Position numbers and translations under genes: made by a program
Shown: positions 3,235-31,778 of the stretch, piece after piece
How positions within the stretch are numbered: the stretch's first letter is position 1
Layout of the letters: every line of letters begins with the position of its first letter
Assembly: GCF_003019035.1 (NCBI RefSeq)
Contig: NZ_CP027447.1
Source of the DNA: Escherichia coli
GTDB taxonomy: Bacteria; Pseudomonadota; Gammaproteobacteria; Enterobacterales; Enterobacteriaceae
DNA: 64,000 nt
Strand: one strand, 5' to 3'
The notes under the pieces: model-generated
Seen by the model: the letters and a program-made list of their open reading frames with translations, nothing else
The model's database searches: none
What the model was told of the DNA's origin: nothing

Positions 3235-3758
3235 TGTTTTTTAAAACGTCAAATCCCGCAGCACTGCTGGCGTGGGACCAGTTTATGGCGGACTGTCTGA
3301 AACTACGCGAAGAAGCCCGCCATCTTGATAAGGTTCTGGGTTGTGGTTGCCGGTCAGTATTCAGCACAGGTATTGGTGGGCGTTATTTTCATGGTGTGAA
3401 CTTTCCGGGGAATGAGCGCCCTTTCTCGCGGGAGCTGTGGACCGTACAACGGCCCGCATCAGGTAACAGTTGCAGGCCTAGAACTTCGCGGATACCTGTT
3501 CATCTCAGGGAGCAGGCAAAAGAGCTGGCGAAAATATGGCAGGAGAATATTCCGGTCACTTATGCCCGCACAGATGCTCTTTTACCCGCACTGGGACTGG
3601 ATTTCAGCGCAACAATATTCGGGCCGCTCCGGTGGTTCCGTGTTGGTGATGTGATTTACGTCATGACGGGGATGACACCCGCACAGGGCTGCATGACGGA
3701 AATCCTGTCCGATGAATTCATGAAGGCAAAGATTGCGTTAAAGGGGGCCGCTAAATGA
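3234..3758 (+). CDS. Hypothetical early protein
   Basis: ATG at 3234 overlaps the upstream stop (GTGATG); the six-frame ORF at 3195 is rejected as an upstream extension. Confidence 0.5.
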   Translation: MFFKTSNPAALLAWDQFMADCLKLREEARHLDKVLGCGCRSVFSTGIGGRYFHGVNFPGNERPFSRELWTVQRPASGNSCRPRTSRIPVHLREQAKELAKIWQENIPVTYARTDALLPALGLDFSATIFGPLRWFRVGDVIYVMTGMTPAQGCMTEILSDEFMKAKIALKGAAK

Positions 3759-4767: not shown

Positions 4768-5392
4768 TCTGGCCGATATGACCGGAAAGTGTTTCAGCGA
4801 TACAAGCGGTGTGGTAGCACCGCTTTTTAAAGGTATGATCATGAGTCGCACATCCCTGATTAAATTAATCCATGTCGCCCGTCGTGATCTACAACTCGAC
4901 GACGATACTTACCGCGCTTTTCTGATGCAGAAAACGGGCAAAATCAGTTGCCGCGAGCTGACGGTAACGCAACTGGAACAGGTGCTCGATGCCATGAAAG
5001 AACGCGGCTTTAAGAAGCTGAATAAACATCCACGTCGCCGCTTTAAGGGGCATGTCACGCCCCGCGAGAAGGTATACAAAGTCTGGCAGCAGATGGCAGA
5101 AGACGGTTTTATTACCGATGGCGGTGATGTGGCGCTGGATAAATATGTTCAGCGCCTGACGGCGAAACGTAATGGCGGACAGGGTGTTTCCACGCTGGCG
5201 TGGTGTCATGGCGACACCCTGTTGATTGTTCTCGAAACTCTCAAGCAGTGGCATATCCGCTGTATTCGTGAAGCCTTTTCCCGTCACGGGCTTCCGTTGC
5301 CGGTCAGTCCGTCCGGGCGTGAACTGCGCGGCTATGATGCCATGACGGCGGCTTATGCCCATGCCAGAAAGACACGGAGGATGGCACAATGA
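4760..5392 (+). CDS. gemA: GemA-like early protein
   Basis: Position immediately upstream of mor as in Mu; true start may be the internal ATG at 4841 (MSRTSLIKL...). Confidence 0.65.
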   Translation: MTNLADMTGKCFSDTSGVVAPLFKGMIMSRTSLIKLIHVARRDLQLDDDTYRAFLMQKTGKISCRELTVTQLEQVLDAMKERGFKKLNKHPRRRFKGHVTPREKVYKVWQQMAEDGFITDGGDVALDKYVQRLTAKRNGGQGVSTLAWCHGDTLLIVLETLKQWHIRCIREAFSRHGLPLPVSPSGRELRGYDAMTAAYAHARKTRRMAQ

Positions 5393-5778
5393 CGGAAGAT
5401 TTATTTGGTGATTTGCAGGATGACACCATCCTGGCACATCTTGACAATCCCGCAGAGGATACGTCACGCTTTCCGGCACTGCTGGCGGAGCTGAACGATT
5501 TACTGCGCGGGGAATTGTCCCGGCTGGGTGTTGATCCTGCCCATTCACTGGAGATTGTAGTGGCTATCTGTAAGCATCTGGGCGGCGGTCAGGTCTACAT
5601 TCCACGCGGTCAGGTTCTGGACTCGCTGATTCGGGATTTGCGTATCTGGAATGATTTTAACGGTCGCAACGTCAGCGAACTGACCACCCGTTATGGTGTC
5701 ACTTTCAATACGGTTTACAAGGCCATTCGCCGGATGCGACGGCTGAAATACCGCCAGTACCAGCCCTCACTTCTGTAA
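5389..5778 (+). CDS. mor: Mor, middle operon transcriptional activator
   Basis: 129 aa; paralogous to the downstream C protein (shared C-terminal helix-turn-helix region); position matches Mu. Confidence 0.85.
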   Translation: MTEDLFGDLQDDTILAHLDNPAEDTSRFPALLAELNDLLRGELSRLGVDPAHSLEIVVAICKHLGGGQVYIPRGQVLDSLIRDLRIWNDFNGRNVSELTTRYGVTFNTVYKAIRRMRRLKYRQYQPSLL

Positions 5779-5783
5779 ACAGT

Positions 5784-5808
5784 AAAGCCGGTTAATCCGG
5801 CTTTTTTT
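5784..5808 (+). terminator. Rho-independent terminator after mor (end of early transcript)
   Basis: AAAGCCGG-TTAAT-CCGGC hairpin followed by TTTTTTT. Confidence 0.7.
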
Positions 5809-6099
5809 ACGTCCTCAATATCCTGTGATGAATAACCGTACCGGGGGAAATCATCATGGGTAAAGGCTGGAATGCATCCTTTCATCTTGGCAGACGTGAG
5901 CGGCTGCGTCAGGAGGTTTTGCACCGTGTCGCCGGTGGGCCTCGGCCTTCGCCCCGCGACTATACCGGTCATGATGGCACCCACGGCAGTTATTACATGA
6001 AAGGCTGGCAGTCAGTTGATATGCCGGAAATTCTTCACCACTGTCAACGTTATAAGGAAAAATATTGTGTACAGAAAATTCAGTGATGAATGTTTCGGG

Positions 6100-6197
6100 C
6101 CGTCCACGCTGATTAGTGCGATAAAAGTGATTGCCCTTGTGGTTCTGATAACCATCAGTGCCGTGGTGTATCTTTCTGTCTGTTAACCGGGGGAAAT
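6100..6197 (+). promoter_or_regulatory. Probable Mor-dependent middle promoter region upstream of C
   Basis: Intergenic position between the mor terminator and C; no motif verified. Confidence 0.3.
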
Positions 6198-6620
6198 ATG
6201 CAGCATGATTTATTTGAACACGATCCGGCAATTCGCCAGTTAATCGGACATATTGATAACATCCCGGCCCCGGAACTGGAATCACGCTGGCCCCGTTCGG
6301 TGGTTGATCTGATTGATGTTCTGGAAAACGAACTGAAACGCCAGAACGTCAGCAATCCCCGTGAACTTGCCCGTAAACAGGCCGTTGCCCTGTCCTGTTT
6401 TCTGGGGGGGCGGCAGTTTTACATCCCCTGCGGCGATACTATCCTGACCGCGTTACGCGACGATTTGCTTTACTGCCAGTTCAATGGTCGTAACATGGAA
6501 GAACTGCGTCGCCAGTACCGCCTGTCCCAGCCGCAGATCTACCAGATTATTGCCCGCCAGAGAAAGCTGCATACACGACGTCATCAGCCTGATCTGTTCT
6601 CACCTGAAAGCCAGAAATAA
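6198..6620 (+). CDS. C: C, late gene transcriptional activator
   Basis: 140 aa, Mor/C family; position matches Mu. Confidence 0.85.
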   Translation: MQHDLFEHDPAIRQLIGHIDNIPAPELESRWPRSVVDLIDVLENELKRQNVSNPRELARKQAVALSCFLGGRQFYIPCGDTILTALRDDLLYCQFNGRNMEELRRQYRLSQPQIYQIIARQRKLHTRRHQPDLFSPESQK

Positions 6621-6640
6621 CCGGCATCCTGCCGGTTATT
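6616..6640 (+). terminator. Hairpin overlapping the C stop codon, possible terminator
   Basis: ATAACCGGC-ATCCT-GCCGGTTAT inverted repeat; weak T tract. Confidence 0.4.
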
Positions 6641-6644
6641 TCCT

Positions 6645-6711
6645 GTCACCATAATCCCGCACCTGCCATCTGATTTTTTAGACTGCCATCAGAGCATTTT
6701 TTCAGGGAAGC
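6645..6711 (+). promoter_or_regulatory. Late promoter P-lys with candidate C-binding motif
   Basis: CCATAATCCCGCACCT (6649-6664) shares CATAA(C/T)CCC...CCCGCACCT with the region upstream of gene I. Confidence 0.5.
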
Positions 6712-7230
6712 ATGATGGCGGGGATACCAAAAAAACTGAAAGCCGCACTGCTGGCGGTAACGATTGCCGGTGGCGGTGTGGGTGGTTATCAGGAAATGAC
6801 CCGTCAGTCTCTGATCCACCTGGAAAATATCGCTTATCTGCCTTACCGCGATATTGCCGGTGTGCTTACGGTCTGTGTGGGACATACCGGGCCGGATATC
6901 GAAATGCGCCGTTACAGCCATGCGGAGTGTATGGCTCTCCTCGACAGTGATTTAAAACCGGTTTATGCGGCAATCGATCGTCTTGTCAGGGTGCCGCTGA
7001 CGCCATATCAGAAAACGGCGCTGGCAACGTTTATTTTCAACACCGGTGTTACCGCATTCAGTAAAACAACGTTGCTGAAAAAACTCAATGCCGGTGATTA
7101 CGCCGGAGCGCGTGACCAGATGGCCCGCTGGGTGTTTGCCGCAGGCCATAAATGGAAAGGACTGATGAACCGTCGCGAAGTGGAAATGGCAATCTGGAAT
7201 ATCAGGGGGGCGGATGACCTTCGCCAGTAA
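6712..7230 (+). CDS. lys: Endolysin (lysozyme-like, with N-terminal signal-anchor-release type hydrophobic segment)
   Basis: 172 aa; hydrophobic N-terminus LKAALLAVTIAGGGVGG followed by a lysozyme-like domain. Confidence 0.85.
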   Translation: MMAGIPKKLKAALLAVTIAGGGVGGYQEMTRQSLIHLENIAYLPYRDIAGVLTVCVGHTGPDIEMRRYSHAECMALLDSDLKPVYAAIDRLVRVPLTPYQKTALATFIFNTGVTAFSKTTLLKKLNAGDYAGARDQMARWVFAAGHKWKGLMNRREVEMAIWNIRGADDLRQ

Positions 7231-7600
7231 AAGTTTACTGCTGGCAGCCGTGTTTGCCGCCGTTCTGTCTGGGGTGTTGTGGCACAGGCTGGACAGCACC
7301 CGCCACGATAACCAGACGCTGCGCCGTGAATTACAGACGGAGCAACAGGCCCGCAACACGGCTGAATGGTTGTTACACAGTCAGGAACAGACGATGCAGG
7401 TATTTTCCGCTATCCGTGCCGCAAATCGTGCCGCGCGGCTGGCAGATGAGACAGAACATCATGATGCAAAACAAAAAATTACAACCGCCATTACCGGTGA
7501 CAATTGCAGCACTCGTCCTGTGCCTGCCGTTGCTGCTGACAGGTTGCGGGAACTCGAAAAACGCACCCGTGCCATCGGTGGTGATCCTGCCCGAAACTGA
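7214..7600 (+). CDS. Inner-membrane spanin subunit (Rz-like)
   Basis: 128 aa; N-terminal transmembrane helix then charged coiled-coil region; directly after lys. Confidence 0.6.
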   Translation: MTFASKSLLLAAVFAAVLSGVLWHRLDSTRHDNQTLRRELQTEQQARNTAEWLLHSQEQTMQVFSAIRAANRAARLADETEHHDAKQKITTAITGDNCSTRPVPAVAADRLRELEKRTRAIGGDPARN

Positions 7601-7802
7601 TGCAGAACTGACGGAAGCAACGCCCGTTCCGCCCATGCCACAGCCCCTGACGTGGGGAGCATCCCTTCTCTGGAATGCTGACCTGCTGATGGCGCTCGGG
7701 CAGTGCAACCGCGACAAGGCATCAGTCCGGGAACAGGAGACCCGGAGGAAAGAAATTTATGAACGAAGACCAGAACCGGGCGGTGGCGCTGCTGCTCGCT
7801 GA
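7461..7802 (+). CDS. Outer-membrane spanin lipoprotein (Rz1-like), overlapping the inner spanin in another frame
   Basis: Lipoprotein signal with lipobox LLLTGC; proline-rich mature part; ATGATG start at 7461. Confidence 0.5.
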   Translation: MMQNKKLQPPLPVTIAALVLCLPLLLTGCGNSKNAPVPSVVILPETDAELTEATPVPPMPQPLTWGASLLWNADLLMALGQCNRDKASVREQETRRKEIYERRPEPGGGAAAR

Positions 7803-7953
7803 ACTCTGGCAGGGGAATACCCGTGATATTCCCCGTCCGGCGGCGTATGACCCGCCTGTATTGTGTGCCGGTTGCGGTCGTGAGCTGCGGCCTGATGTGC
7901 TGAGACAGCAGCCAATGGCGAACTACTGCCACTGGTGCCGTGGAGCAGAATAA
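7759..7953 (+). CDS. Small zinc-finger protein (CxxC...CxxC)
   Basis: 64-aa ORF with CAGCG and CHWC motifs. Confidence 0.4.
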   Translation: MNEDQNRAVALLLAELWQGNTRDIPRPAAYDPPVLCAGCGRELRPDVLRQQPMANYCHWCRGAE

Positions 7954-8252
7954 TGGATTTGATTTCAGTTTTAGCGTTATGGCCTTACCTGTTGCCTGTT
8001 GTGGCCGGTGGGGCCGTCTGGGCGATGCGTCGTAGTTTTGCCAGCACCGAGCGTGTGGAGCGTCTTGAAAACCGGATGACCGAAATGGAAACCCGCTACG
8101 CCAGCATCCCTGGCACAGAAGATGTACACGAAATGCGCCTGCGTATTGCAGAGCTGTCCGGCGATATCCGGGTGCTGTCCCAGCGGGTGCAGTCATTTTC
8201 CCATCAACTGGAGCTGCTGCTTGAAAACGCAGTAAACCGGAGTAATTCATGA
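7953..8252 (+). CDS. Small membrane protein, possible lysis accessory protein
   Basis: ATG at 7953 overlaps the upstream stop (TAATG); N-terminal transmembrane segment then coiled coil. Confidence 0.5.
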   Translation: MDLISVLALWPYLLPVVAGGAVWAMRRSFASTERVERLENRMTEMETRYASIPGTEDVHEMRLRIAELSGDIRVLSQRVQSFSHQLELLLENAVNRSNS

Positions 8253-8539
8253 TTAACGATATTCTGACCGAAGACCGTCGTCTGGTCATCCTGCGTTCCC
8301 TGATGGACTGCAATAACGAAGCCAACGAATCCATCCTTCAGGACTGTCTGGATGCATACGGACACAACGTTTCCCGCGATGTGGTTCGCGGCCAGATTGA
8401 CTGGCTGGCAGAGCAGCAACTGGTCACCGTGGAAAACCTGCGCGGCTTTTATGTCGTAACGCTGACCTCCCGAGGTCAGGATGTGGCGGAAGGCCGCGCC
8501 CGCGTTGCCGGTGTCAAGCGTCCGCGTCCCCGTGCATGA
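8249..8539 (+). CDS. Hypothetical protein upstream of terminase (Mu gp26 position)
   Basis: 96-aa ORF, coupled to neighbours. Confidence 0.55.
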   Translation: MINDILTEDRRLVILRSLMDCNNEANESILQDCLDAYGHNVSRDVVRGQIDWLAEQQLVTVENLRGFYVVTLTSRGQDVAEGRARVAGVKRPRPRA

Positions 8540-9126
8540 CAGGAGGCGTGATGGACAGGAAAACACGGGGCCGGGCTTCAAAAGTGGATTTACTGCCGGA
8601 AAACGTACGTAAAACGCTGCATGAAATGCTGCGTGATAAGGCGATCCCACAGGCCCGCATTCTGGAAGAAATTAACGCACTGATTGAAGACGCTGGCCTG
8701 CCGGATGAGATGAAACTCTCCCGTTCCGGTCTGAACCGTTACGCGACGAACGTCGAGCAGGTAGGCCATAACCTGCGACAGATGCGTGAAATGACGTCAG
8801 CACTGACCGCAGAACTTGGCGACAAGCCAATGGGAGAAACCACAAAGCTGATTCTGGAAATGGCCCGCAGCCAGCTTTTTAAGGCCATGATGCGGCAAAT
8901 CGAAAACCCGGAATCTGACGTGGATATTGACCTGCTGAAAAATGCCATGCTGGCGGCACAGCGTCTGGAATCCACGGCAATGTCCAGCCACCGGCGCGAG
9001 AAAGAAATCCGCCAGGCATTCGCAGAAGAAGCGGCAAACGCCGTCAGTGAAGAACTGCGCGGGCAGGATGGCATCAGCGAAGAGCTGGAGCAGCGTATCC
9101 GTGATGTGCTGCTGGGTAAGGCATGA
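8536..9126 (+). CDS. Putative terminase small subunit (Mu D / gp27 position)
   Basis: 196 aa; immediately upstream of the large terminase. Confidence 0.6.
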   Translation: MTGGVMDRKTRGRASKVDLLPENVRKTLHEMLRDKAIPQARILEEINALIEDAGLPDEMKLSRSGLNRYATNVEQVGHNLRQMREMTSALTAELGDKPMGETTKLILEMARSQLFKAMMRQIENPESDVDIDLLKNAMLAAQRLESTAMSSHRREKEIRQAFAEEAANAVSEELRGQDGISEELEQRIRDVLLGKA

Positions 9127-9133
9127 GAGGGTT

Positions 9134-10789
9134 ATGAACACCAGAGAAAACAACCTTAAAGCCCTTCATGCCCCCCGAAAAATCAACCTGCGTGAGGAAG
9201 CCGAACTGCTCGGCGTGAATATCGTGACCGATATCGGGGAAGCACAGCCCCGCAATGAACCGGTTTTTCTGGGCTATCAGCGCCGCTGGTTTGAGGATGA
9301 AAGCCAGATTTGCATCGCTGAAAAATCCCGTCGTACCGGTCTGACATGGGCCGAAGCGGGCCGCAATGTCATGACGGCAGCAAAGCCGCGCCGCCGTGGC
9401 GGTCGCAACGTCTTTTATGTGGGTTCCCGTCAGGAAATGGCGCTGGAATATATCGCCGCCTGTGCCCTGTTTGCCCGCGCCTTTAACCAGCTGGCAAAGG
9501 CTGATGTCTGGGAGCAGACCTTCTGGGACAGCGACAAAAAAGAAGAAATCCTCACTTATATGATCCGTTTCCCTAACAGCGGATTTAAGGTGCAGGCGCT
9601 GTCAAGCCGTCCGTCTAACCTGCGTGGTTTGCAGGGGGACGTGGTGATTGATGAGGCGGCATTTCATGAAGCCCTGGACGAACTCCTGAAAGCGGCCTTT
9701 GCTCTCACCATGTGGGGTGCCCGCGTGCGGATCATATCGACACATAACGGCGTCGATAACCTGTTTAACCAGTACATTCAGGATGCGCGCGAGGGGCGCA
9801 AGGATTACAGCGTTCACCGCATCACGCTGGATGATGCCATCGCTGACGGGTTGTACCGACGTATCTGTTACGTCACGAATCAGCCGTGGTCGCCGGAAGC
9901 GGAAAAAGCCTGGCGTGATGGCCTGTACCGGAATGCGCCGAATAAAGAGAGTGCCGACGAGGAATACGGCTGCATTCCTAAAAAATCCGGGGGCGCTTAT
10001 CTGTCACGCGTGCTGATTGAAGCCGCCATGACGCCAGCGCGGGATATCCCGATTCTGCGTTTTGAAGCCCCGGACGATTTTGAATCGCTGACACCACAAA
10101 TGCGCCACGGCATCGTTCAGGACTGGTGTGAACAGGAGCTGCTCCCGTTGCTCGATGCGCTGTCGCCGCTCAATAAACACGTACTGGGCGAAGACTTTGC
10201 ACGCCGTGGCGACCTGACGGTGTTTGTTCCGCTTGCCATCACTCCTGACTTACGCAAACGCGAATGTTTCCGCGTGGAGCTGCGTAATGTGACCTATGAC
10301 CAGCAGCGACAAATCCTTTTATTCATTCTGTCCCGTTTGCCCCGTTTTACCGGCGCTGCATTTGATGCCACCGGTAACGGCGGTTATCTGGCAGAAGCCA
10401 CCCGTCTGATTTATGGCCCGGAGATGATCGACTGTGTGAATCTGACCGCATCCTGGTATCAGGAGTGGATGCCAAAACTGAAAGGCGAGTTTGAAGCGCA
10501 GAACATCACGATTGCCCGGCACCAGACCACTCTTGATGACCTGCTCCACATCAAGGTGGACAAAGGTATTCCGCAGATTGATAAGGGGCGCACAAAAGAT
10601 GAAGGTGGTAAAGGCCGACGACATGGCGACTTTGCCGTGGCGCTCTGTATGGCTGTCAGAGCGTCTTATATGAATGGTTTTGTTATCGACGAGGACAGCA
10701 TACAGGCGCTGCCACCACGCCACCGTGGTGATGATGTTGATAACGATGATTTTGATGATTATCACCAGTTTGAACGAGGGGGCTGGTAA
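9134..10789 (+). CDS. E: Terminase large subunit
   Basis: ATG at 9134 (MNTRENNLKAL...), 551 aa; the six-frame ORF start at 8942 is an in-frame upstream extension overlapping the previous gene. Confidence 0.85.
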   Translation: MNTRENNLKALHAPRKINLREEAELLGVNIVTDIGEAQPRNEPVFLGYQRRWFEDESQICIAEKSRRTGLTWAEAGRNVMTAAKPRRRGGRNVFYVGSRQEMALEYIAACALFARAFNQLAKADVWEQTFWDSDKKEEILTYMIRFPNSGFKVQALSSRPSNLRGLQGDVVIDEAAFHEALDELLKAAFALTMWGARVRIISTHNGVDNLFNQYIQDAREGRKDYSVHRITLDDAIADGLYRRICYVTNQPWSPEAEKAWRDGLYRNAPNKESADEEYGCIPKKSGGAYLSRVLIEAAMTPARDIPILRFEAPDDFESLTPQMRHGIVQDWCEQELLPLLDALSPLNKHVLGEDFARRGDLTVFVPLAITPDLRKRECFRVELRNVTYDQQRQILLFILSRLPRFTGAAFDATGNGGYLAEATRLIYGPEMIDCVNLTASWYQEWMPKLKGEFEAQNITIARHQTTLDDLLHIKVDKGIPQIDKGRTKDEGGKGRRHGDFAVALCMAVRASYMNGFVIDEDSIQALPPRHRGDDVDNDDFDDYHQFERGGW

Positions 10790-12327
10790 TGGGCCGTATT
10801 CTGGATATTTCCGGGCAGCCGTTTGATTTTGACGATGAAATGCAGACCCGCAGCGATGAGCTGGCAATGGTCATGAAGCGTACGCAGGAGCATCCTTCCA
10901 GTGGTGTGACGCCGAACCGGGCCGCGCAGATGCTGCGTGATGCCGAACGCGGTGATCTGACCGCACAGGCTGACCTGGCCTTTGATATGGAAGAAAAGGA
11001 CACCCACCTTTTTTCCGAACTGAGCAAGCGCCGCCTTGCCATTCAGGCGCTGGAATGGCGCATCGCTCCGGCACGTGATGCCAGCGCACAGGAGAAAAAA
11101 GACGCCGACATGCTGAATGAATATCTGCATGATGCGGCGTGGTTTGAAGATGCCCTGTTTGATGCCGGTGATGCCATTCTCAAGGGTTATTCCATGCAGG
11201 AGATTGAATGGGGCTGGCTGGGCAAAATGCGCGTGCCGGTGGCGCTGCATCATCGCGATCCGGCGCTGTTCTGTGCGAACCCCGACAATCTGAACGAATT
11301 ACGCCTGCGTGATGCGTCTTATCACGGGCTGGAGCTGCAACCGTTCGGCTGGTTTATGCACCGGGCCAAATCCCGCACCGGGTATGTCGGCACCAATGGC
11401 CTTGTGCGCACGCTTATCTGGCCTTTTATTTTTAAAAACTATTCCGTGCGTGATTTTGCAGAGTTTCTGGAAATTTACGGACTCCCCATGCGCGTTGGTA
11501 AATATCCGACCGGCTCAACGAACCGCGAGAAAGCCACGCTGATGCAGGCCGTGATGGATATCGGGCGACGTGCCGGTGGCATTATTCCGATGGGGATGAC
11601 GCTGGATTTTCAGAGCGCCGCAGATGGTCAGTCAGACCCTTTTATGGCGATGATTGGCTGGGCAGAAAAAGCGATTTCAAAAGCCATTCTGGGCGGCACC
11701 CTGACCACAGAGGCTGGCGATAAAGGTGCGAGGTCGCTGGGTGAAGTGCATGATGAGGTTCGCCGGGAAATCCGTAACGCGGATGTGGGCCAGCTTGCCC
11801 GCAGTATTAACCGTGACCTGATTTATCCCCTGCTGGCACTGAACAGTGACAGCACCATTGATATTAACCGCCTGCCGGGCATTGTATTTGATACCAGTGA
11901 AGCGGGTGATATTACGGCACTGTCTGACGCCATTCCGAAACTGGCGGCGGGAATGCGTATTCCGGTTTCCTGGATACAGGAAAAACTTCATATTCCACAA
12001 CCGGTCGGTGATGAAGCCGTGTTTACTGCTCAACCGGTTGTCCCGGATAACGGTCCGCAGAAAGAGGCCGCATTATCCGCTGAAGATATCCCGCAGGAGG
12101 ATGATATCGACCGGATGGGCGTCTCACCGGAAGACTGGCAGCGTTCGGTTGATCCCCTGCTGAAACCCGTCATTTTTTCTGTGCTGAAAGATGGCCCGGA
12201 AGCCGCCATGAACAAAGCTGCTTCATTATATCCGCAGATGGATGATGCAGAACTTATCGACATGCTGACCCGTGCCATTTTTGTTGCCGATATATGGGGG
12301 CGTCTGGATGCCGCAGCAGACCATTGA
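10789..12327 (+). CDS. H: Portal protein
   Basis: 512 aa; position after terminase matches Mu. Confidence 0.85.
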   Translation: MGRILDISGQPFDFDDEMQTRSDELAMVMKRTQEHPSSGVTPNRAAQMLRDAERGDLTAQADLAFDMEEKDTHLFSELSKRRLAIQALEWRIAPARDASAQEKKDADMLNEYLHDAAWFEDALFDAGDAILKGYSMQEIEWGWLGKMRVPVALHHRDPALFCANPDNLNELRLRDASYHGLELQPFGWFMHRAKSRTGYVGTNGLVRTLIWPFIFKNYSVRDFAEFLEIYGLPMRVGKYPTGSTNREKATLMQAVMDIGRRAGGIIPMGMTLDFQSAADGQSDPFMAMIGWAEKAISKAILGGTLTTEAGDKGARSLGEVHDEVRREIRNADVGQLARSINRDLIYPLLALNSDSTIDINRLPGIVFDTSEAGDITALSDAIPKLAAGMRIPVSWIQEKLHIPQPVGDEAVFTAQPVVPDNGPQKEAALSAEDIPQEDDIDRMGVSPEDWQRSVDPLLKPVIFSVLKDGPEAAMNKAASLYPQMDDAELIDMLTRAIFVADIWGRLDAAADH

Positions 12328-13627
12328 TCTGGCGTATGCCGCACGCCTCCCGCCAAAGGAGGCTGTCGCGTATTTCCGCGCCAAAGGCTACAACATCACC
12401 TGGAACTGGTACGAACAACTGGCAGACGCGCACGCCCGCGCCTTTACCGTTGCCAAAGCCACCCGGATGGATGTCCTGACCACAATCCGTGAGGAAGTGG
12501 AGCGGGCTGTCAGTGAAGGCATCACCCGTGAGGAATTTACCCGCACACTGGCCCCCCGGCTGCAAAAACTCGGATGGTGGGGAAAACAAATCATCGTGGA
12601 TGCAGACGGAAACGCGAAGGTAATCGAGCTGGGCAGTCCGCGTCGTCTGGCAACCATTTATAACGTCAATACCCGTACGGCGTATGGGGCAGGACGTTAT
12701 GCGCAGATGATGAATACCGCCGATTTGTACCCGTACTGGCAGTACGTTGCCGTTATGGATGGCAGAACACGCCCGGAACATGCGCGGCTGCACAATATGG
12801 TTTTCCGGTATGACGACATTTTCTGGCAGACGCATTACCCGCCCAATGGCTGGAACTGCCGCTGTCGCGTCCGGGCGCTGTCTGCGGCCCGCATGAAAGA
12901 ACTGGGGCTACAGGTCAGTTATGGTGCGTCATTCATGAATACCCGCGAAGTGGATGCCGGTACGGATGAAAGCACCGGAGAGATTTTCCGCACATCGTCA
13001 ACCACGTTTGACAACGGTCGGGTAAAAATGACGCCAGATGTGGGCTGGTCATATAACCCTGGTTCGGCGGCATTTGGTACGGATCAGGCACTGATTCGAA
13101 AACTGGTGGAAATTCGCGACGCGCAGTTGCGTGAGCAGGTTGTTCAGACGCTGAATAACAGCCGGGAGCGTCAGCTTGCTTTTTCCCTCTGGCTTAAACG
13201 CTTGGCAGGATCACGTCAGACCGGTCATGAAATCTGGGCACTGGGTTTTATGACGGAATCGGTAGCTGAAGCCGTACATCAGCGCACCGGGAATATGCCA
13301 GCCCGTCTGCTTGTGATGAACGGGAAAAGTCTGGCGACCACTGCTGATGCCGCCCTGAAACCGGAGGATTTACAGCATCTGCCGTCGCTGATGGCAAAAC
13401 CACAGGCAGTATTGTGGGACAGGGAGAACCACCAGTTGCTGTATGTTGTGGCAACCCGTGACGGCATGGCCCGGATTGTGGTCAGAACATCACAGACAGT
13501 CGGCAGGCAGAATGACCGTGCGGATGTGCTGGTCAGTATCAGCCGCGTATCTGCACAGTCGCTTGAAACCGCGATTGCTGACGGGATGATTGACGTACTG
13601 GAGGGGCATGTGGAGGTGAATAAGTGA
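12272..13627 (+). CDS. F: Head morphogenesis protein (Mu F-like)
   Basis: 451-aa ORF; true start may be the internal ATG at 12308. Confidence 0.8.
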   Translation: MPFLLPIYGGVWMPQQTIDLAYAARLPPKEAVAYFRAKGYNITWNWYEQLADAHARAFTVAKATRMDVLTTIREEVERAVSEGITREEFTRTLAPRLQKLGWWGKQIIVDADGNAKVIELGSPRRLATIYNVNTRTAYGAGRYAQMMNTADLYPYWQYVAVMDGRTRPEHARLHNMVFRYDDIFWQTHYPPNGWNCRCRVRALSAARMKELGLQVSYGASFMNTREVDAGTDESTGEIFRTSSTTFDNGRVKMTPDVGWSYNPGSAAFGTDQALIRKLVEIRDAQLREQVVQTLNNSRERQLAFSLWLKRLAGSRQTGHEIWALGFMTESVAEAVHQRTGNMPARLLVMNGKSLATTADAALKPEDLQHLPSLMAKPQAVLWDRENHQLLYVVATRDGMARIVVRTSQTVGRQNDRADVLVSISRVSAQSLETAIADGMIDVLEGHVEVNK

Positions 13628-14094
13628 GTCTTGATATGAACGTTGCCGTGGATGTGCGACGTATTCAGCTTGCACTGGATGAACTGGGAACCGTTACACG
13701 TGACCGCGCCATTCCCCGTGTGATGGCTGCGGCGCTGCTGTCATCCACGGAACAGGCATTTGAACGGCAGGCAGACCCGGATACAGGGAAAGGCTGGGAA
13801 GCGTGGAGCGATTCGTGGCAGGCATGGCGTCAGGATCATGGTTTTGTTCCGGGCAGTATCCTTACCCTGCATGGCGATCTGGCACGCAGCATTACCACCG
13901 ATTATGGACAGGATTATGCCCTGATTGGTTCGCCAAAAATTTATGCTGCCATTCATCAGTGGGGCGGTACACCCGATATGGCACCCCGCCCGGCAGGCGT
14001 TCCTGCGCGTCCTTATATGGGGCTGGATAAGACCGGGGAACAGGAAATTTTTGATGCCATCAGAAAACGCGTCAGCGCTGCTCTGAGGCAATAA
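13624..14094 (+). CDS. G: Virion morphogenesis protein (Mu G-like)
   Basis: 156 aa; position matches Mu. Confidence 0.7.
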   Translation: MSLDMNVAVDVRRIQLALDELGTVTRDRAIPRVMAAALLSSTEQAFERQADPDTGKGWEAWSDSWQAWRQDHGFVPGSILTLHGDLARSITTDYGQDYALIGSPKIYAAIHQWGGTPDMAPRPAGVPARPYMGLDKTGEQEIFDAIRKRVSAALRQ

Positions 14095-14290
14095 ACTGAA
14101 TCAGACATGAAATCAGCTGCACAGATTTTTTAAAACGCGCCACGGGATTTTTAAACCGGTATTTAACGGTGTATGAATCCCGTTTTATCTTCCTTCCACT
14201 TTCTTTCTCCATTACTCAAATAGCATAACCCCAGATTTTCCCGCACCTCCCGCAAACTGACTGCTCACAAACCATGATGAGCAGCAGGAC
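14095..14290 (+). promoter_or_regulatory. G-I intergenic region: late promoter P-I and expected location of the Mu strong gyrase site
   Basis: Only sizeable non-coding gap in the structural block; CATAACCCC...CCCGCACCT motif at 14224-14250. Confidence 0.5.
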
Positions 14291-15376
14291 ATGAAAAAAC
14301 ACGCGATTGGCATTGCCGCACTGAGTGCGCTGTCCATTGACGATGACGGCTGGTGCCAGCTATTGCCTGCCGGTCATTTCAGTGCCCGTGATGGTCGTCC
14401 GTTTGATGTGACAGACGGTCAGGGGTGGTTCATCGACGGTGAGATTGCCGGGCGTCTGGTTGAAGGCGTTCGCGCGCTCAACCAGGACGTGCTGATTGAT
14501 TACGAGCATAACCAGCTACGTAAGGACAAAGGATTACCCCCGGAACAACTCGTCGCGGCTGGCTGGTTTAACGCCGATGAAATGCAGTGGCGTGAAGGTG
14601 AAGGGTTATTTATCCACCCACGCTGGACGGCGGCGGCCCAGCAGCGCATCGATGACGGCGAATTTGGTTATCTCTCTGCGGTTTTTCCGTATGACACCGC
14701 CACCGGTGCAGTGCTGCAAATCCGCCTTGCTGCGCTGACCAATGACCCCGGTGCCACCGGCATGAAAAAGCTGACCGCACTGGCGGCAGACCTTCCCGAC
14801 ATCCTTCAACAGGAGAACAAACCCATGAATGAAACGCTGCGCAAGCTGCTTGCGCGTCTTGGGGTGACGGTCCCCGAAAATGCAGACATCACCGATGAAC
14901 AGGCCAGCGCGGCCCTGAGTGCGCTTGATGCGCTCGAAACAGATGCCGGAAAAGTGGCGGCGTTGTCTGCCGAACTGGAAAAGGCACAGAAAGCCGCCGT
15001 TGACCTGACGAAATACGTCCCGGTGGAAAGCTACAACGCCCTGCGTGATGAACTGGCACAGGCGACTGCACAAAGCGCCACAGCCAGCCTGAGCGCCGTT
15101 CTGGACAAGGCGGAACAGGAAGGCCGCATTTTCAAAAGCGAACGTACCTATCTGGAACAGCTTGGCGGTCAGATTGGCGTGGCGGCACTGTCGGCACAGC
15201 TTGAGAAAAAACAGCCTATCGCTGCGTTATCTGCCATGCAGACCACCACAGCGAAAATCCCGTCGCAGGAAAAAACGGCGGTGGCGGTGCTGTCTGCTGA
15301 TGAACAGGCAGCAGTGAAGGCGCTCGGCATTACAGAGGCTGAGTATCTGAAAATGAAACAGGAACAAGAAAAATGA
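14291..15376 (+). CDS. I: Head protease / scaffold protein (Mu I; in-frame C-terminal Z scaffold expected)
   Basis: 361 aa; Ala/Glu-rich coiled-coil C-terminus typical of scaffolds. Confidence 0.8.
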   Translation: MKKHAIGIAALSALSIDDDGWCQLLPAGHFSARDGRPFDVTDGQGWFIDGEIAGRLVEGVRALNQDVLIDYEHNQLRKDKGLPPEQLVAAGWFNADEMQWREGEGLFIHPRWTAAAQQRIDDGEFGYLSAVFPYDTATGAVLQIRLAALTNDPGATGMKKLTALAADLPDILQQENKPMNETLRKLLARLGVTVPENADITDEQASAALSALDALETDAGKVAALSAELEKAQKAAVDLTKYVPVESYNALRDELAQATAQSATASLSAVLDKAEQEGRIFKSERTYLEQLGGQIGVAALSAQLEKKQPIAALSAMQTTTAKIPSQEKTAVAVLSADEQAAVKALGITEAEYLKMKQEQEK

Positions 15377-17927: not shown

Positions 17928-19411
17928 GCGATATTTCATTTAACGCGATCCCGTCAGATGTTCGCGTTCCTCTGACGTATATCGAATTTGATAACAGTAA
18001 TGCCGTCAGCGGAACACCGGCACCCCGTCAGCGCGTGCTGATGTTCGGGCAAAGCGGAAGTAAAGCCAGTGCGGCACCAAACGTGCCTGTCCGTATCCGT
18101 TCCGGCTCACAGGCCAGTGCGGCGTTTGGTCAGGGTTCCATGCTGGCACTGATGGCAGATGCATTCCTGAACGCTAACCGCGTGGCGGAGCTGTGGTGTA
18201 TTCCGCAGGGGAACGGCACCGGTAATGCGGCTGTCGGTGAAATTTCACTGTCAGGAACGGCAGGCGAAAACGGCTCGCTTGTGACTTACATTGCCGGTCA
18301 GCGACTGGCGGTATCTGTCGCAGCAGGTGCAACGGGAGCGGCGCTGGCTGACCTGCTGGTTGCCCGAATCAAAGGCCAGCCTGATTTACCGGTGACGGCA
18401 GAAGTTCGCGCAGACAGCGGGGATGATGACACCCATGCAGATGTGGTTCTGAGTGCAAAATTTACGGGTGCATTATCTGCCGTGGACGTGCGCTGGAACT
18501 ATTACGCGGGTGAAACGACCCCTTACGGGATTATCACGGCATTCAAAGCCGCCTCCGGGAAAAATGGCAACCCGGATATCAGCGCAAGTATCGCGGGAAT
18601 GGGCGATCTGCAATACAAATATATTGTGATGCCCTATACCGATGAACCGAACCTGAATCTGTTACGCACTGAATTGCAGGAACGCTGGGGACCGGTCAAT
18701 CAGGCTGATGGCTTTGCTGTGACAGTGCTGTCCGGCACGTATGGGGACATTTCCACGTTTGGTGTCAGCCGTAATGACCATCTGATTTCCTGTATGGGGA
18801 TTGCCGGTGCACCGGAACCGTCATATCTGTACGCCGCCACACTGTGTGCCGTTGCCAGCCAGGCGCTTTCCATCGACCCGGCGCGTCCACTCCAGACGCT
18901 GACGTTGCCCGGAAGAATGCCGCCTGCGGTGGGGGATCGTTTCACCTGGTCAGAACGTAATGCGCTGCTGTTTGACGGCATCTCCACGTTTAACGTGAAT
19001 GATGGTGGTGAAATGCAGATTGAACGCATGATCACGATGTACCGCACAAACAAGTACGGTGACAGCGATCCGTCTTATCTGAACGTGAATACCATCGCCA
19101 CGCTGAGTTATCTGCGTTATTCGCTGCGAACCCGCATCACGCAGAAATTCCCGAACTACAAGCTGGCAAGTGATGGCACCCGCTTTGCCACCGGTCAGGC
19201 CGTGGTGACGCCATCCGTGATCAAAACGGAGCTGCTGGCACTGTTTGAAGAATGGGAAAACGCCGGACTGGTCGAGGATTTCGACACGTTCAAAGAGGAG
19301 CTGTATGTGGCACGTAACAAGGACGACAAAGACCGTCTTGATGTGCTGTGCGGCCCGAATCTGATTAACCAGTTCCGCATTTTCGCGGCACAAGTTCAGT
19401 TCATTCTGTAA
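17924..19411 (+). CDS. L: Contractile tail sheath protein
   Basis: 495 aa; followed by a tube-sized gene. Confidence 0.85.
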
Positions 19412-20365: not shown

Positions 20366-22438
20366 ATGACCGGGAAACGCTTAAAGGCGTCTGTCATTAT
20401 TGATCTTAATGGCAATCTTTCCCGGCGTTCCCGCCAGTATTCGAACCAGATAAACGCCCTGTCCCGTAGCGGGCAAAGTTCCCTGCGTGCCCTACGTATG
20501 GAGGTTGTGCGCGTTTCTGGTGCCATTGACAGAATGGGTTCACTGTCAACCCGTACATTCCGAATGCTGTCAGCCGGGGCGCTGGGTATTGCTGGCGTGG
20601 GTTACACCGCCAATAAACTGTTTATTGGTGCAGCCGCCCAGCGTGAGCAACAGATTATCGCCATGAACTCGCTGTATCACGGCGATAAGGTCAGAGCGCA
20701 GGCCATGATGGCCTGGGCAAAGCAGAACGCGAAGGACACCACGTGGGGGCTGAGTGGTGTTCTGGATGAGATCCGTTCGTCGAAAGGCTTCGGCATGACG
20801 GATGAACAGACGAAACAGTTCATCACCATGTTGCAGGATCAGGGGGCCATGCACGGCTGGGATTTACCCACTGCACAGGGTGCCTCACTGCAACTGAAAC
20901 AGATGTTTGCCCGCCAGCAAATCACGGCGGCGGATGCCAACCTGCTGACCGGTTACGGTATCAACGTTTATCAGGCGCTGGCGGATGCAACGGGAACGGA
21001 CGTTAAAAAAATCCGTGATCTGGGTACAAAGGGCAAGCTGGGCATGAAATCCATTCTGACGGTATTCAGAACGCTGTCAGAACAGTCAAAAGGTGCACAG
21101 GCCAGTGCGATGAACTCCTGGGACGGGATGTTCGCCCAGATGGAAGCTAACCTGCTTGAATTTCGCATAAAGGTGGCAAACAGCGGCCCCTTTGAAGAAA
21201 TCAAGAACGAGATGCGCCGGGTGCTTAACTGGCACGACATGGCGGATAAATCCGGGGAACTTGACGCACTGGCAGAAAACATTGGTCAGAAATTTCTGAC
21301 CACGTTCAGAACGGTAAAAATCGCGGCGCAGGAATTATGGCGCTGGCTGAAACCGGGTAAAGATGCGCTGGCATGGGTTGACCAGAATATTGTCAGCCTG
21401 AAAAAACTGGCTGCTGTTCTGGTGTCTGTCTGGCTTGCCAATAAAGCCCTGAGAGCAGGCTGGGCTGTGGCAAAACCCTCATGGCAGGTTGCCAGTTATC
21501 CGTTTAAAACCGGGCGTCGTATGTGGCGCTGGATGCGAAACCGCAAACGTGGGCAGGCAGGTCTGCCGGTCCCGGATGCCATGACGTCTGAGACGCTGTT
21601 GCAGGGTATCGGCATTCAGCGTGTGTTTGTCATCAACTGGCCCCGTGGATTTGGTGGCTACGGGAGTGGCGGCGGTCGTCGCGGACGGAGCGGCGGAAGA
21701 ATGGCCCCGCTGTTACCCCGCCAGCCGTTATTGCTGTCCGGGCCACAGCCGCTGGCATTACCTGCACCACGCCCTGTACTGGCATTACCCCCACCCGGCG
21801 TACCGGTAACAGCACGGCCTGCACCATTACCTTTACCCGGTAAATCCGGTCTTCTGAGCAGGCTTGCAGGCAGTGCTGCCGGGCAACTGGTTACGGGAAC
21901 GGTCGGAAAGCTGGCTGATGCCGGGCGTGCTGTTGGCGGATGGTTTTCCGGTATCGGAAACAAACTTGCAGGCAGTGCGATCGGTCGGGTTGTGACAAAA
22001 GGTGCCGGGGCGCTGGGCTGGATGGGGAAAGGTGCCGGTCGTGCGTTGTCACGTCTGGGTGGCCCGGTAATGGGGGCACTCCAGCTTGCCCCCGTCCTGA
22101 TGGATGAGCAGGCGTCAACCCATGAAAAAGCAGGCGCAATTGGCAGTACAGCCGGTGCATGGCTCGGCGGTGCCGTTGGCAGCCTTGCCGGACCGCTGGG
22201 TACGGTTGCCGGTGCCACGCTGGGCAGTGTCGCCGGGGAGTATCTGGGCGGTTTTGTAACCGACCTGTATCAGAAATGGACGGCCCCGGATAAGGAACCG
22301 CAGGAACAAAAAGTGAATGCGGAAGCCTCGCTGCGCGTCGAACTTGGCGAGGGGTTACGTCTGACCAGTTCCCGCGTCACCGAGGACGGTATGGGGCTGA
22401 ATATTTACGCGGGCGATAACTACATTACAGGCTGGTAA
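20366..22438 (+). CDS. Tail tape measure protein
   Basis: 690 aa; helical N-terminal part, Gly/Ala/Pro-rich C-terminal part. Confidence 0.8.
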
Positions 22439-22442
22439 AACC

Positions 22443-23930
22443 ATGTTTGAAGATGCTTTAAATGCCGTTAATGCTGTCCGGGATAAAATCAGCGGTGGTA
22501 AGAAAACAACCGGCAAAGGCACGTTTCGTAACGTGCCGTTTCTCGTCATCGAGGAGCAAAAACAGGCTGGCGGACGTCGCCTGGTTAAACGCGAGTACCC
22601 GTTACGTGATACCGGCGGCGTCAATGACCTGGGGAAAAAGCTTCGCTCCCGTACATTCAGCGCCTGCATTCTGAACAGCAACGCAGAAACAGCCAGAGAT
22701 GAAGCGGGTGCGCTGATGGATGCTCTTGATGCTCCGGGTAGCGGTGAGCTGGTACATCCTGATTTCGGCACTGTGGACGTCATGGTGGATTCATGGGAAT
22801 GCCGCACTAAAGCGGATGAACTGAATTATTACGCGTTCACCGTTACCGTTTATCCGTCGTTGCAGGATACTGCCCCGGACGCAGAGACAGACACCAGTGC
22901 AGCCGTACCGGCACAGGCCGTTGCTGTAACCGGTTCTCTGGGAGATACGCTATCCTCTGTCTGGCAGACCGTAAAAGATGGCACTGCGGCGGCAACCGCC
23001 GTGATGGAAGCTGTAACCGGTGTCATCGATGATATCAGTGATGCGGTGGACAATCTGGGGGTTACGCAGACTGTCAGCGGTCTGATGGGATCGCTTTCTG
23101 CGATGAAAGGCTCTGTGACCAGCCTGATTAACCAGCCTGCCATGCTGGCCTCCTCGCTGATGGGGGCGCTGTCCGGCGTTTCATCGTTATGCGATACCCG
23201 GACAGCATTTTCCACATGGAACCGTCTGGCGCAGCGATTCGAACGTCGCCATGCCGCCACCGCAGGCAGACAGGGGGCAATCACAACCTCGTACAACAGT
23301 CCGGTTGCAGAAAAAAATATTGCCACACTGAACTACGTCATGCTGGCAGCAGCACAGACATACCGAGCGGAGGCAGCAAGCCAGGCACTGACTGCGGCAC
23401 TGGATTTCAGTCGCCGGATGGATAATGCCGCCCGTGCACCTGTACTGGATGCCCCGTCCACCACAACCGGCACAGCCAGCGGGGCCAGCAGCACATCCGC
23501 TACCGTCACACAGGGACAGTTACAGTTAACTGCCATAACCCCGGACGGCGGCTTTTCACAGGTATCCTTTTCAGACAGTGGTACAGCCACGCCCCCGGTA
23601 TTTGAAAGTGTGTCCGATATCGGAAAAACAGCCGCCATGCTGGGGGCTGCACTGGATACCGTCATTCTGACGGCATCTGAGCAGGGCTTTTCGACAGACA
23701 GCGTTCAGCTTACGCAACTGCGTCTGCTGGTTGTTGCCGACCTGGAAAAACGCGGGCTGCAACTGGCGGGCAGTGAAACGCACCGCCTGCCGGAGACGAT
23801 GCCTGCAATGGTGGCCCTGTACCGTTACACAGGAAACAGCCGGAACTGGCAACGGCTGGCCCGCAGGAACGGTATCAGCAACCCGTTGTTTGTTCCCGGT
23901 GGTGTCAGTATTGAGGTGATTAATGAGTAA
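22443..23930 (+). CDS. N: DNA circularisation protein (Mu N)
   Basis: 495 aa; position matches Mu. Confidence 0.8.
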
Positions 23931-25062
23931 TACCGTCACGCTGCGAACGGATGGCAGGCTTTTTACCGGCTGGACGTCAGTCTCTGTCACCCGCTCGATT
24001 GAATCCGTAGCCGGATATTTTGAGCTGGGGGTGAACGTGCCACCGGATACGGATTTATCCGGGCTGGCACCGGGGAAGGCGTTCACGCTGGAAATCGACG
24101 GGCAGATTGTCTGCACCGGTTATATCGATTCACGGCGACGCCAGATGACTGCTGACAGTATGAAAATCACTGTCGCCGGACGTGACAAAACGGCTGACCT
24201 GATTGACTGTGCTGCCGTTTACAGTGGCGGACAGTGGAAAAACCGCACACTGGAGCAGATTGCGCGTGACCTGTGCGCCCCTTATGGCGTTACCGTTCGC
24301 TGGGAGCTTTCCGATAAGGAAAGTTCGGCAGTTTTTCCCGGCTTCACGCTGGACCATTCAGAAACCGTTTATGAGGCGCTGGTGCGTGCCTCCCGCGCAC
24401 GCGGTGTACTGATGACCAGCAATGCCGCCGGAGAGCTGGTATTCAGCCGGGCTGCCAGCACAGCTACTGATGAGCTGGTTCTCGGAGAAAATCTGCTGAC
24501 ACTGGATTTTGAGGAAGACTTCCGCGACCGGTTCAGCGAATACACCGTCAAGGGGTATGCCCGCGCAAACGGTGCTGAGGGTGATGATATTGATGCGAAA
24601 AGTATCGTCTCCCGGAAAGGGACCGCCACTGACAGTGATGTAACCCGTTACAGACCGATGATCATCATTGCTGACAGCAAAATTACGGCGAAGGATGCAC
24701 AGGCCCGCGCCCTGCGTGAGCAACGCCGCAGACTGGCAAAATCCATCACCTTTGAGGCTGAAATTGACGGATGGACTCGCAAGGACGGGCAACTCTGGAT
24801 GCCGAACCTGCTGGTCACTATTGATGCCTCGAAATATGCCATCAAAACCACGGAATTACTGGTCAGCAAAGTCACCCTGATACTGAATGACCAGGACGGG
24901 CTGAAAACCCGCGTCAGCCTTGCACCACGCGAAGGCTTTCTGGTGCCGGTTGAAAGCGACCGTAAAAACAGGAAAGGCGGCGACAGTAACGGCGGTATTG
25001 ATGCGCTGGTTGAAGATTATTATCGCAGACACCCGGAGAAAACGCCGCCGTGGAAAGAGTAA
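23923..25062 (+). CDS. P: Baseplate hub protein (Mu P)
   Basis: 379 aa; synteny. Confidence 0.8.
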
Positions 25063-25643
25063 ATGATTCCGCCCTGAACCGCCTGCTGACGCCGCTGATG
25101 CGTCGTGTGCGCCTGATGCTTGCGCGCGCTGTTGTTAACGTGATTAACGACGGGCGAAAGGTTCAGAACCTGCAGGTCGGCCTGCTGGATGATGAGGAAT
25201 CTGATGAAGTGGAGCGCCTGCAAAATTACGGGCATTTCAGCGTTCCCCTGCCGGGAGCAGAGGCGCTGATTGCCTGTGTAGGCGCACAACGTGATCAGGG
25301 GATTGCCGTTGTGGTGGAAGACCGCCGCTACCGCCCGACAAATCTTGAACCGGGTGATGCAGGCATTTACCACCACGAGGGGCATCGTATCAGGCTGACA
25401 AAGGACGGACGCTGCATCATTACCTGTAAAACGGTTGAGGTTTACGCTGATGAAAGTATGACCGTTGACACACCCAGAACCACGTTTACCGGCGACGTTG
25501 AGATCCAGAAAGGTCTGGGCGTTAAAGGTAAAAGCCAGTTCGACAGCAATATTACTGCCCCGGATGCCATCATCAATGGCAAATCGACGGATAAGCATAT
25601 CCACCGTGGCGACAGCGGCGGAACCACGGGGCCAATGCAATGA
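25050..25643 (+). CDS. Q: Baseplate assembly / spike protein (Mu Q-like)
   Basis: 197 aa; synteny. Confidence 0.75.
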   Translation: MERVNDSALNRLLTPLMRRVRLMLARAVVNVINDGRKVQNLQVGLLDDEESDEVERLQNYGHFSVPLPGAEALIACVGAQRDQGIAVVVEDRRYRPTNLEPGDAGIYHHEGHRIRLTKDGRCIITCKTVEVYADESMTVDTPRTTFTGDVEIQKGLGVKGKSQFDSNITAPDAIINGKSTDKHIHRGDSGGTTGPMQ

Positions 25644-29048: not shown

Positions 29049-29049
29049 C

Positions 29050-29577: not shown

Positions 29578-29582
29578 AAATT

Positions 29583-29602
29583 AAGGCCCGATAGCGGGCC
29601 TT
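29583..29602. terminator. Hairpin between convergent U and U', possible bidirectional terminator
   Basis: AAGGCCCG-ATAG-CGGGCCTT; A/T-rich flank on the U' side. Confidence 0.5.
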
Positions 29603-29605
29603 GTC

Positions 29606-31684: not shown

Positions 31685-31778
31685 ATCGATCGGTAATACA
31701 GATCGATTATGCCCCAATAACCACACTCAACCCATGATGTTTTTTAAGATAGTGGCGAATTGATGCAAAGGAGGTGAG
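31665..31778 (+). promoter_or_regulatory. com-mom promoter region with three clustered GATC Dam sites
   Basis: GATC at 31670, 31688 and 31701; CCCCAATAACC C-box-like motif; GGAGG ribosome-binding site before com. Confidence 0.65.

Follow-up and report, generated by a model that had tools for sequence, protein, structure and literature searches.

Motif copies upstream of lys and I in a Mu-type prophage of Escherichia coli very probably mark C-dependent late promoters

A motif that recurs upstream of lys and I in a Mu-type prophage of E. coli almost certainly marks two C-dependent late promoters, Plys and PI, out of four in this element, the others being PP and Pmom. The motif had been proposed to mark C-dependent late promoters in a first-pass annotation of a 64,000-nucleotide stretch of contig NZ_CP027447.1 (hereafter the window). 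We observed the two sites at the locations, and with the architecture, of late promoters annotated in Mu, in an element that carries an intact C gene, and with a core box that is conserved or co-varies in related phages. C binding and C dependence are predicted here, carried over from the Mu literature by near-identity to the Mu features. These promoters are already known, having been described for Mu since 1989, and nothing is added to that biology.

The right ~33 kb of the prophage occupies positions 1-33407 of the window, with 33392-33407 corresponding to the Mu right end and E. coli ddpA to the insertion site. The prophage shares ~98% identity with Mu, D108 and SfMu. Besides the promoter mismatches given below, it differs from Mu, at strain level only, by the absence of gene 19 between mor and C, by ~630 bp extra at the right end, and by a C-terminal difference of two residues in the C protein. 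The cognate activator gene C, which belongs to the Mor/C family of late-gene transcription activators, is intact and lies on the same element as the promoters (6198..6620). Its product matches Mu C at 138/140 aa and Pfam Mor (PF08765) with an E of 9e-34. C, the hairpin that follows it, and all late-promoter elements described below lie on the + strand. This hairpin, AACCGGCA-TCC-TGCCGGTT (6620..6638), which we read from the sequence as the terminator of the middle transcript, adjoins the upstream edge of Plys. A simple terminator scan missed it; it was recognized by eye and agrees with the terminator that the Mu record places at the corresponding site (Mu 10383-10406).

All four late promoters annotated in the Mu GenBank record, which cites PMID 2522923, map into the window. 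The 67-bp Mu features for Plys, PI, PP, and Pmom show 2, 1, 0, and 0 mismatches to it, respectively, all of them outside the box and the -10, and each feature begins 13 bp upstream of an ATAA. The late promoters here have the same elements as those of Mu at homologous positions, with matching boxes, -10 hexamers, 28-bp spacing, T6 run, Pmom spacer, and activator gene. The four -10 hexamers (TAGACT, CAAACT, TATCCT, and TAAGAT) are recognizable and all begin at ATAA+28, and no -35 consensus accompanies them; a σ70 consensus scan found no -35/-10 promoter at Plys or PI. In Mu, C sites have been described as an "imperfect" 16-bp dyad centered at -43.5 (PMC2582627), with the consensus TTAT-N5-6-ATAA (PMC12867686), and for Mu Plys and Pmom both the dependence of transcription on C and a DNase footprint of C spanning about -30 to -55 are documented (PMC2582627, PMC4461284). 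All 4/4 sites carry the right arm of this dyad, ATAA, with its distance to the -10 unchanged. Pmom (TTAT-N6) and PP (TTAA-N5) also have a clear left arm, whereas that of Plys (TCCT) and PI (CTCA) is degenerate and poorly recognizable.

Plys, the late promoter of the lys transcription unit (6638..6704), corresponds to Mu feature 10403-10469, labeled "Late promoter activated by C" in the Mu record with reference to PMID 2522923. The two substitutions relative to Mu fall in the spacer or downstream, leaving the box and the -10 untouched. The motif copy CCATAATCCCGCACCT reported in the first-pass annotation is found exactly at 6649-6664. The predicted C-binding element (6640..6658), whose register was set from the position of the -10, the published center at -43.5 (PMC2582627), and alignment, comprises the 16-bp imperfect dyad at 6640-6655 (-51 to -36); its conserved right arm, taken together with the flank, is CCATAATCCC at 6649-6658. 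The full C element reaches about 10 bp further upstream than had been flagged. The -10 hexamer TAGACT (6679..6684) is preceded by a T6 run (6674-6679), a stretch common to Plys and Pmom (PMC4461284). From the -10 and the published center, +1 would lie near 6691. Translation of lys would begin at an ATG at 6712 or 6715; the former is separated from the motif end by 48 bp and from the ATAA start by 61 bp.

PI, the late promoter of the head-gene unit of which I is the first gene (14212..14278), corresponds to Mu feature 17977-18043, with a single mismatch at its first base, on the upstream edge. The second motif copy, CATAACCCCAGATTTTCCCGCACCT, is likewise exactly where it had been reported, at 14224-14248. 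The predicted C-binding element (14214..14232) includes the conserved right arm and flank GCATAACCCC at 14223-14232, and it ranks 1 of ~128,000 positions under a matrix for which divergent relatives were the sole training set. The -10 hexamer CAAACT (14253..14258) is offset by 28 from ATAA, and the same reckoning as for Plys would place +1 near 14265. Gene I has its ATG at 14291, 43 bp from the motif end and 66 bp from the ATAA start, and the spacing of 45-55 bp upstream of the first gene originally proposed roughly fits both units. In the PI spacer, a 10-bp match between the lys and I promoters, TCCCGCACCT, is displaced by exactly one helical turn relative to Plys. With its preceding bases it reads ATTTTCCCGCACCT, which is 12/14 identical to ATAATCCCGCACCT in Plys and forms a degenerate second copy of the Plys box. 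We rejected an alternative PI promoter set by this second box, since CTCACA, which stands at the 28-bp distance downstream, is not -10-like.

As for the other two promoters, the motif search suggested upstream of P recovered a third copy, CATAACCCC, at 23534-23542, which is the box of annotated PP (23522..23588; Mu feature 27287-27353, 0 mismatches), the late promoter of the tail/baseplate unit. PP lies inside gene N, its box being 388 bp upstream of the P ATG and its -10, TATCCT, at 23563-23568. The box and the 28-bp spacing are kept where the surrounding N coding sequence has diverged, which makes the box a conservation island. In three relatives identified through P (L164-L166) there is no box at the homologous place; the P-protein and C-protein relatives are on different contigs, and this comparison does not come from the genomes used for lys and I. 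Pmom, the late promoter of com-mom (31704..31770), corresponds to Mu feature 35693-35759 with 0 mismatches. Its dyad, TTATGCCCCAATAA, is at 31707-31720, and the related element noted upstream of com/mom, CCCCAATAACC at 31712-31722, proved to be the Pmom C site. Pmom has a weak -35, ACCACA (31720-31725), a 19-bp spacer, and the -10 TAAGAT (31745-31750), the -35 and the spacer agreeing with Mu Pmom (PMC2582627).

Could the likeness of two C-rich intergenic regions simply be due to chance, with no shared function? Raw counts in the window are only marginally above shuffled expectation. CATAAYCCC occurs 4 times vs 1.06 expected (4/100 shuffles reach 4), and CCCGCACCT, the second part of the motif as first described, occurs twice as an exact match vs 0.47 expected (8/100 shuffles reach 2) and 17 times with one mismatch vs 12.9 expected. 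Such counts are by themselves weak evidence; it is position that makes the motif non-random. The three CATAAYCCC copies in the prophage are all on the + strand, each within a 67-bp late-promoter feature and in the same register, while the fourth is in host DNA on the - strand (52341). Random copies inside coding regions, which would have spoken against the proposal, were not seen, the sole coding copy (in gene N) being PP itself. A gapped composite, CATAAYCCC-N(0-12)-CCCGCACCT, matches only PI (0/100 shuffles); it misses Plys because the two halves overlap there by CCC, and the gapped search is therefore not a fair composite count. The degenerate core [CG][CA]ATAA[CT]C[AC]C is found in the prophage only at the four promoters, always on the + strand, and also has 4 matches in 31 kb of host DNA, so that the core alone is not specific. 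When box and -10 were combined in a matrix built from relatives only, the four window sites ranked 1, 2, 5, and 12 of ~128,000 positions; with box-only matrices, Plys ranked 67th and Pmom 76th. Leave-one-out matrices, each resting on just three sites of the window, gave ranks of 8 to 79 of ~128,000, which lends support, though weakly given the small number of sites. Since the prophage copies fall precisely on promoters that are annotated and experimentally mapped in Mu, and box and spacing hold across lineages as described below, chance likeness is scarcely credible.

Related phages display the same layout. In six phage lineages, with C proteins 54-100% identical, 14/14 sites have a box with a -10 exactly 28 bp downstream. 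The box is lineage-specific and yet common to the lys and I promoters of one phage (e.g., ccGGAATCCCC), the boxes being CAGATACCGGAATCCCCGA, CAGATACCGGAATCACCT, A(G/T)AAACCCA, and (A/G)TAA(T/A)CCCCG. Across these phages it is either conserved or changes along with the activator. The ATAA vs GGAA box type is tracked across lineages by residue 112 of C (Pro, Thr, or Val), which hints at a specificity code that may be readable from sequence. Scanning the whole collection with a 14-mer of the relatives, CAGATACCGGAATC, returned, among the matches listed, only the known lys and I promoters in two target genomes, with no P- or mom-promoter copies found among the matches listed for these two; most of the listed matches fell elsewhere in the collection, and we take these to be chance. 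The variation of the box also bears on whether the motif might be recognized by RNA polymerase itself, as an unusual -35 or extended element, instead of by an activator. The motif does overlap the -35 region, and Mu Plys, PI, and PP are bound by RNA polymerase without C (PMC4461284). However, the box is centered upstream of the -35 and is unlike TTGACA, no consensus promoter was found there, the box differs between C lineages (ATAA to GGAA) despite a conserved host polymerase, and published C footprints cover it (PMC2582627). We therefore consider a polymerase element very improbable and an activator site the far better reading.

The original interpretation proved right in the main, with a refinement as to the composite: only CATAA(C/T)CCC is the common C box, and CCCGCACCT is out of register and absent from PP and Pmom. 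The 10-bp identity, which the legend to Fig. 1 of PMC4461284 points out, is TCCCGCACCT; it lies at 6655..6664 in Plys (ATAA +4 to +13, about -36 to -27) and at 14239..14248 in PI (ATAA +14 to +23, about -26 to -17); CCCGCACCT accordingly spans about -35 to -27 in the former and, within the spacer of the latter, about -25 to -17. That CCCGCACCT is itself a C-recognition element, and CATAAYCCC plus CCCGCACCT the operator, is unlikely. It would fit with the TCCCGCACCT identity between the 67-bp Plys and PI being rarer than chance (matched in 16/5000 shuffles and 26/5000 random prophage segment pairs), with the two copies being offset by exactly 10 bp and hence on the same helix face, with the Plys copy overlapping the downstream end of the published footprint, and with the reported importance for activation of bases just downstream of the dyad (PMC2582627). 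Nevertheless, the 10-bp shift between Plys and PI holds whether the ATAA box or the -10 is taken as the reference, sharing of CCCGCACCT between lys and I is seen in 0/5 divergent lineages, all of which share the upstream box, and TCCCGCACCT is mostly outside the Plys bases -52 to -34, which are needed according to mutational analysis (PMC2582627). Out of register, missing from PP and Pmom, and unshared in relatives, CCCGCACCT is therefore, judging from these alignments, not a generic part of the C operator but a piece of a Mu-lineage-specific identity between Plys and PI. It is also improbable, though conceivable, that TCCCGCACCT, found only in Plys and PI, is a second functional module, contacted either by polymerase or by a C tetramer through its downstream half; such a module would tune isomerization-type activation at the morphogenesis promoters and not at Pmom.

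With CATAA(C/T)CCC as the C box, each promoter combines a σ70-type -10, no usable -35, and a predicted imperfect-dyad C site centered near -43.5. The box represents the well-conserved right arm (ATAA) with the bases next to it and occupies about -42 to -34, its distance to the -10 downstream being always 28 bp. C would be made from the middle transcript, whose putative terminator adjoins Plys, and its binding would lead host RNA polymerase holoenzyme to start late transcription. In Mu, C acts at closed-to-open complex isomerization at lys, I, and P, and via DNA unwinding, polymerase recruitment, and promoter escape at mom (PMC4461284). In the Mu literature, C has been proposed to bind as a dimer, a 2025 preprint reports a tetramer, and C requires the β sliding clamp; a cryo-EM complex of C with RNA polymerase has been described (bioRxiv 10.1101/2025.05.02.651988).

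The Mor-dependent middle promoter Pm of Mu corresponds to window 5771-5841, its activator Mor, a paralogue within the Mor/C family, being encoded at 5389-5778. Like the late promoters, Pm has a 16-bp dyad centered at -43.5, is σ70 dependent, and lacks a -35; it depends on the C-terminal domains of α and σ, according to the literature. Unlike them, it has a different box sequence, with no ccATAAyCCC. Pm is a separate element of different sequence, and the motif sites, which are downstream of C, are not Pm. Other activator-dependent phage promoters include the sites of P2 Ogr and P4 Delta, PRE with λ CII, and T4 late promoters with the gp45 clamp. In these systems too a small phage activator offsets a missing -35 and times late genes, but the proteins and site sequences are unrelated to Mu C, and the likeness is one of analogy only. 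Mu C resembles the T4 late system in its use of a sliding clamp (PMC12867686).

The value of these results is mainly one of validation: activator-dependent promoters were recognized from sequence alone, and the check proposed at the outset recovered a third promoter. Two minor additions are that the match in CCCGCACCT can now be read as specific to one lineage and shifted in register, and that Mu-like phages hold the 28-bp box-to--10 layout while the box changes together with the C protein.

The motif sites lie within a Mu-type prophage. Two regions, 6000-15000 and 22400-33200, are 95-99% identical to the Escherichia phages Mu and D108, to Shigella phage SfMu and to Mu-like phages of Yersinia (megablast against phage records). 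At 33392-33407 stands TTCGTGCGCCGCTTCA, the canonical right end of Mu, with E. coli chromosome (ddpA/ddpX/dosP side) from 33408 on. The sites are therefore within the prophage, the left part of which precedes the window. The insertion site is host gene ddpA (33368-33841, - strand, and 33408 onward), which is disrupted since the host match begins at 33408, ~299 bp into the gene. At 6037-6068, ~400 bp of Mu are absent (9430-9831 in the Mu record, a stretch from between mor and C that is essentially gene 19/E19); SfMu and Yersinia Mu-like phages align across this point as a single piece, which suggests that they lack the segment too. A ~630-bp AT-rich insert (32645-33273, GC about 0.38) separates the end of mom from the final 134 bp of Mu; megablast gave no match to it in 50,697 phage records or among 5,426 complete E. 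coli genomes. The insert contains a 113-aa ORF (32764-33105, + strand) with a signal-peptide-like N terminus, which belongs to no Pfam, PHROG or NCBIfam family and may represent cargo carried at the right end of Mu.

Within this prophage, the motif sites, on sequence grounds, are the Mu late promoters themselves, in a Mu-type strain, and not merely similar elements. Four late promoters, each a 67-bp feature, are listed in the GenBank record of Mu with reference to Margolin, Rao & Howe 1989, and the window carries all of them: Plys (6638-6704, two mismatches), PI (14212-14278, one mismatch), and PP (23522-23588) and Pmom (31704-31770), both without mismatch. Every defining feature of Mu late promoters that is testable in sequence is present at these sites. 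The first-pass annotation had placed CCATAATCCCGCACCT at 6649-6664, CATAACCCC...CCCGCACCT at 14224-14248 and CCCCAATAACC at 31712-31722, all of which we found there, and its reading of them as binding sites for the late-gene activator C is supported by their coincidence with the Mu features. The finding itself is already known. Gene C is intact (6198-6620; 138/140 identical to Mu C; Pfam family Mor), and a middle-transcript terminator hairpin (6620-6638) adjoins Plys. The G-I intergenic region also holds the Mu strong gyrase site (~14095-14190; cut annotated at Mu 17879/80, about 14114/5 here), whose flanking block, cttttaaacgcg...gatttaaac...gttttaaa, is kept together with the site in phages with a G protein only 57-68% identical.

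Raw motif counts are not compelling by themselves: CATAAYCCC occurs 4 times (1.06 expected), exact CCCGCACCT twice (0.47 expected) and CCCGCACCT with one mismatch 17 times (12.9 expected). It is position that makes the motif real, as all prophage copies of CATAAYCCC are on the + strand, inside Mu late-promoter features, with ATAA 13 bp into the feature. The proposed search upstream of P yields the third copy (23534-42), which is the P promoter, within gene N and 388 bp 5' of the P start codon. In the host, a PI-box-like core copy, caatagCATAACCATAACCAC (50676-50703, - strand), with a -10-like TATATT 27 bp downstream, lies in AT-rich sequence 5' of yddA; its score under the full matrix is low and it is probably a chance occurrence.

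With ATAA as the anchor of a four-promoter alignment (6651, 14225, 23535 and 31717), the -10 hexamers TAGACT, CAAACT, TATCCT and TAAGAT each begin at ATAA +28. Scanning for consensus sigma-70 promoters revealed no -35/-10 pair at Plys or PI. Pmom displays a TTAT-N6-ATAA dyad (31707-31720) centered 43.5 bp upstream of the start implied by its -10, and a weak -35, ACCACA, with a 19-bp spacer. The published Pmom has a dyad center at -43.5, the same weak -35 and a 19-bp spacer (PMC2582627), and this agreement in center and spacer fixes the register. In this register, the predicted 16-bp C element of Plys would span 6640-6655 and the region that mutational analysis found necessary (-52 to -34) about 6639-6657; CCATAATCCC, highlighted in the first-pass annotation, is by this alignment the right arm of the C element together with neighboring bases. 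The left arm is easily recognized in Pmom and in PP (TTAA-N5-ATAA); those of Plys and PI are degenerate.

The motif had been proposed to have two parts. Only CATAAYCCC stands as the common C box; CCCGCACCT is out of register and specific to the Mu lineage. It falls within a 10-bp identity, TCCCGCACCT (6655-6664 and 14239-14248), located at +4 to +13 relative to ATAA in Plys versus +14 to +23 in PI, displaced by exactly 10 bp with respect to both ATAA and the -10 and so falling in the spacer in PI. In the four-promoter alignment, TCCCGCACCT is not present in PP or Pmom, and in none of the relatives' lineages do the lys and I promoters have a second common element corresponding to CCCGCACCT. Pure chance is unlikely, since a match of equal length between two 67-bp segments arose in 16/5000 shuffles and 26/5000 random pairs of prophage segments, though these statistics are not overwhelming. 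CCCGCACCT is a Mu-lineage identity possibly without function.

C-protein searches of viral contigs identified Mu-like phages with a C 54-67% identical. In each, one box lies between C and lys and another between G and I, both followed at exactly 28 bp by a -10-like hexamer, a layout seen in 14/14 aligned sites from six lineages (including the window's four). The box varies between lineages, yet is common to the lys and I promoters of one phage: CAGATACCGGAATCCCCGA in L014 and L016, CAGATACCGGAATCACCT in L017-L019, A(G/T)AAACCCA in L020, CCATAATCCCCG and GTAAACCCCG in L022. In phages with a P protein 65-72% identical, the box of the P promoter, cAGTTAAaCnCCATAACC, with TAATAT or TAGTCT 28 bp beyond it, forms a conserved island amid diverged N coding sequence, 388-391 bp from P. 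A weight matrix of box plus -10, trained on relatives only, ranks PI 1, PP 2, Plys 5 and Pmom 12 of about 128,000 positions. One contig, L015, has a 9-bp tandem repeat, (CCCCAAAAG)n, at the 5' end of its endolysin gene (~10430-10500, equivalent to L007 ~3530-3600), which is not in its sister contigs L014 and L016.

Co-variation of this kind, with boxes that differ between lineages yet agree within one phage, is what would be expected of an operator evolving with its activator. Residue 112 of C (~6531-6533), located in the recognition helix of the HTH, is Thr throughout the GGAA-box lineages and Pro or Val in ATAA-type ones (window C compared with L014, L017, L019 and L021); it may determine box specificity, a lead only because independent lineages are few. 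In Mu, the C footprint at Plys and Pmom covers about -30 to -55, and binding of a C dimer has been proposed (PMC2582627); a 2025 preprint (bioRxiv 10.1101/2025.05.02.651988) reports C as a tetramer in a Pmom activation complex imaged by cryo-EM. At Pmom, C unwinds DNA, recruits polymerase and favors promoter escape; Plys, PI and PP are bound by polymerase in the absence of C, which there works at open-complex formation (PMC4461284). C also requires the beta sliding clamp (2026 paper, PMC12867686). Because the promoters and C are both near-identical to those of Mu, we infer that this mechanism would hold for the prophage described here.
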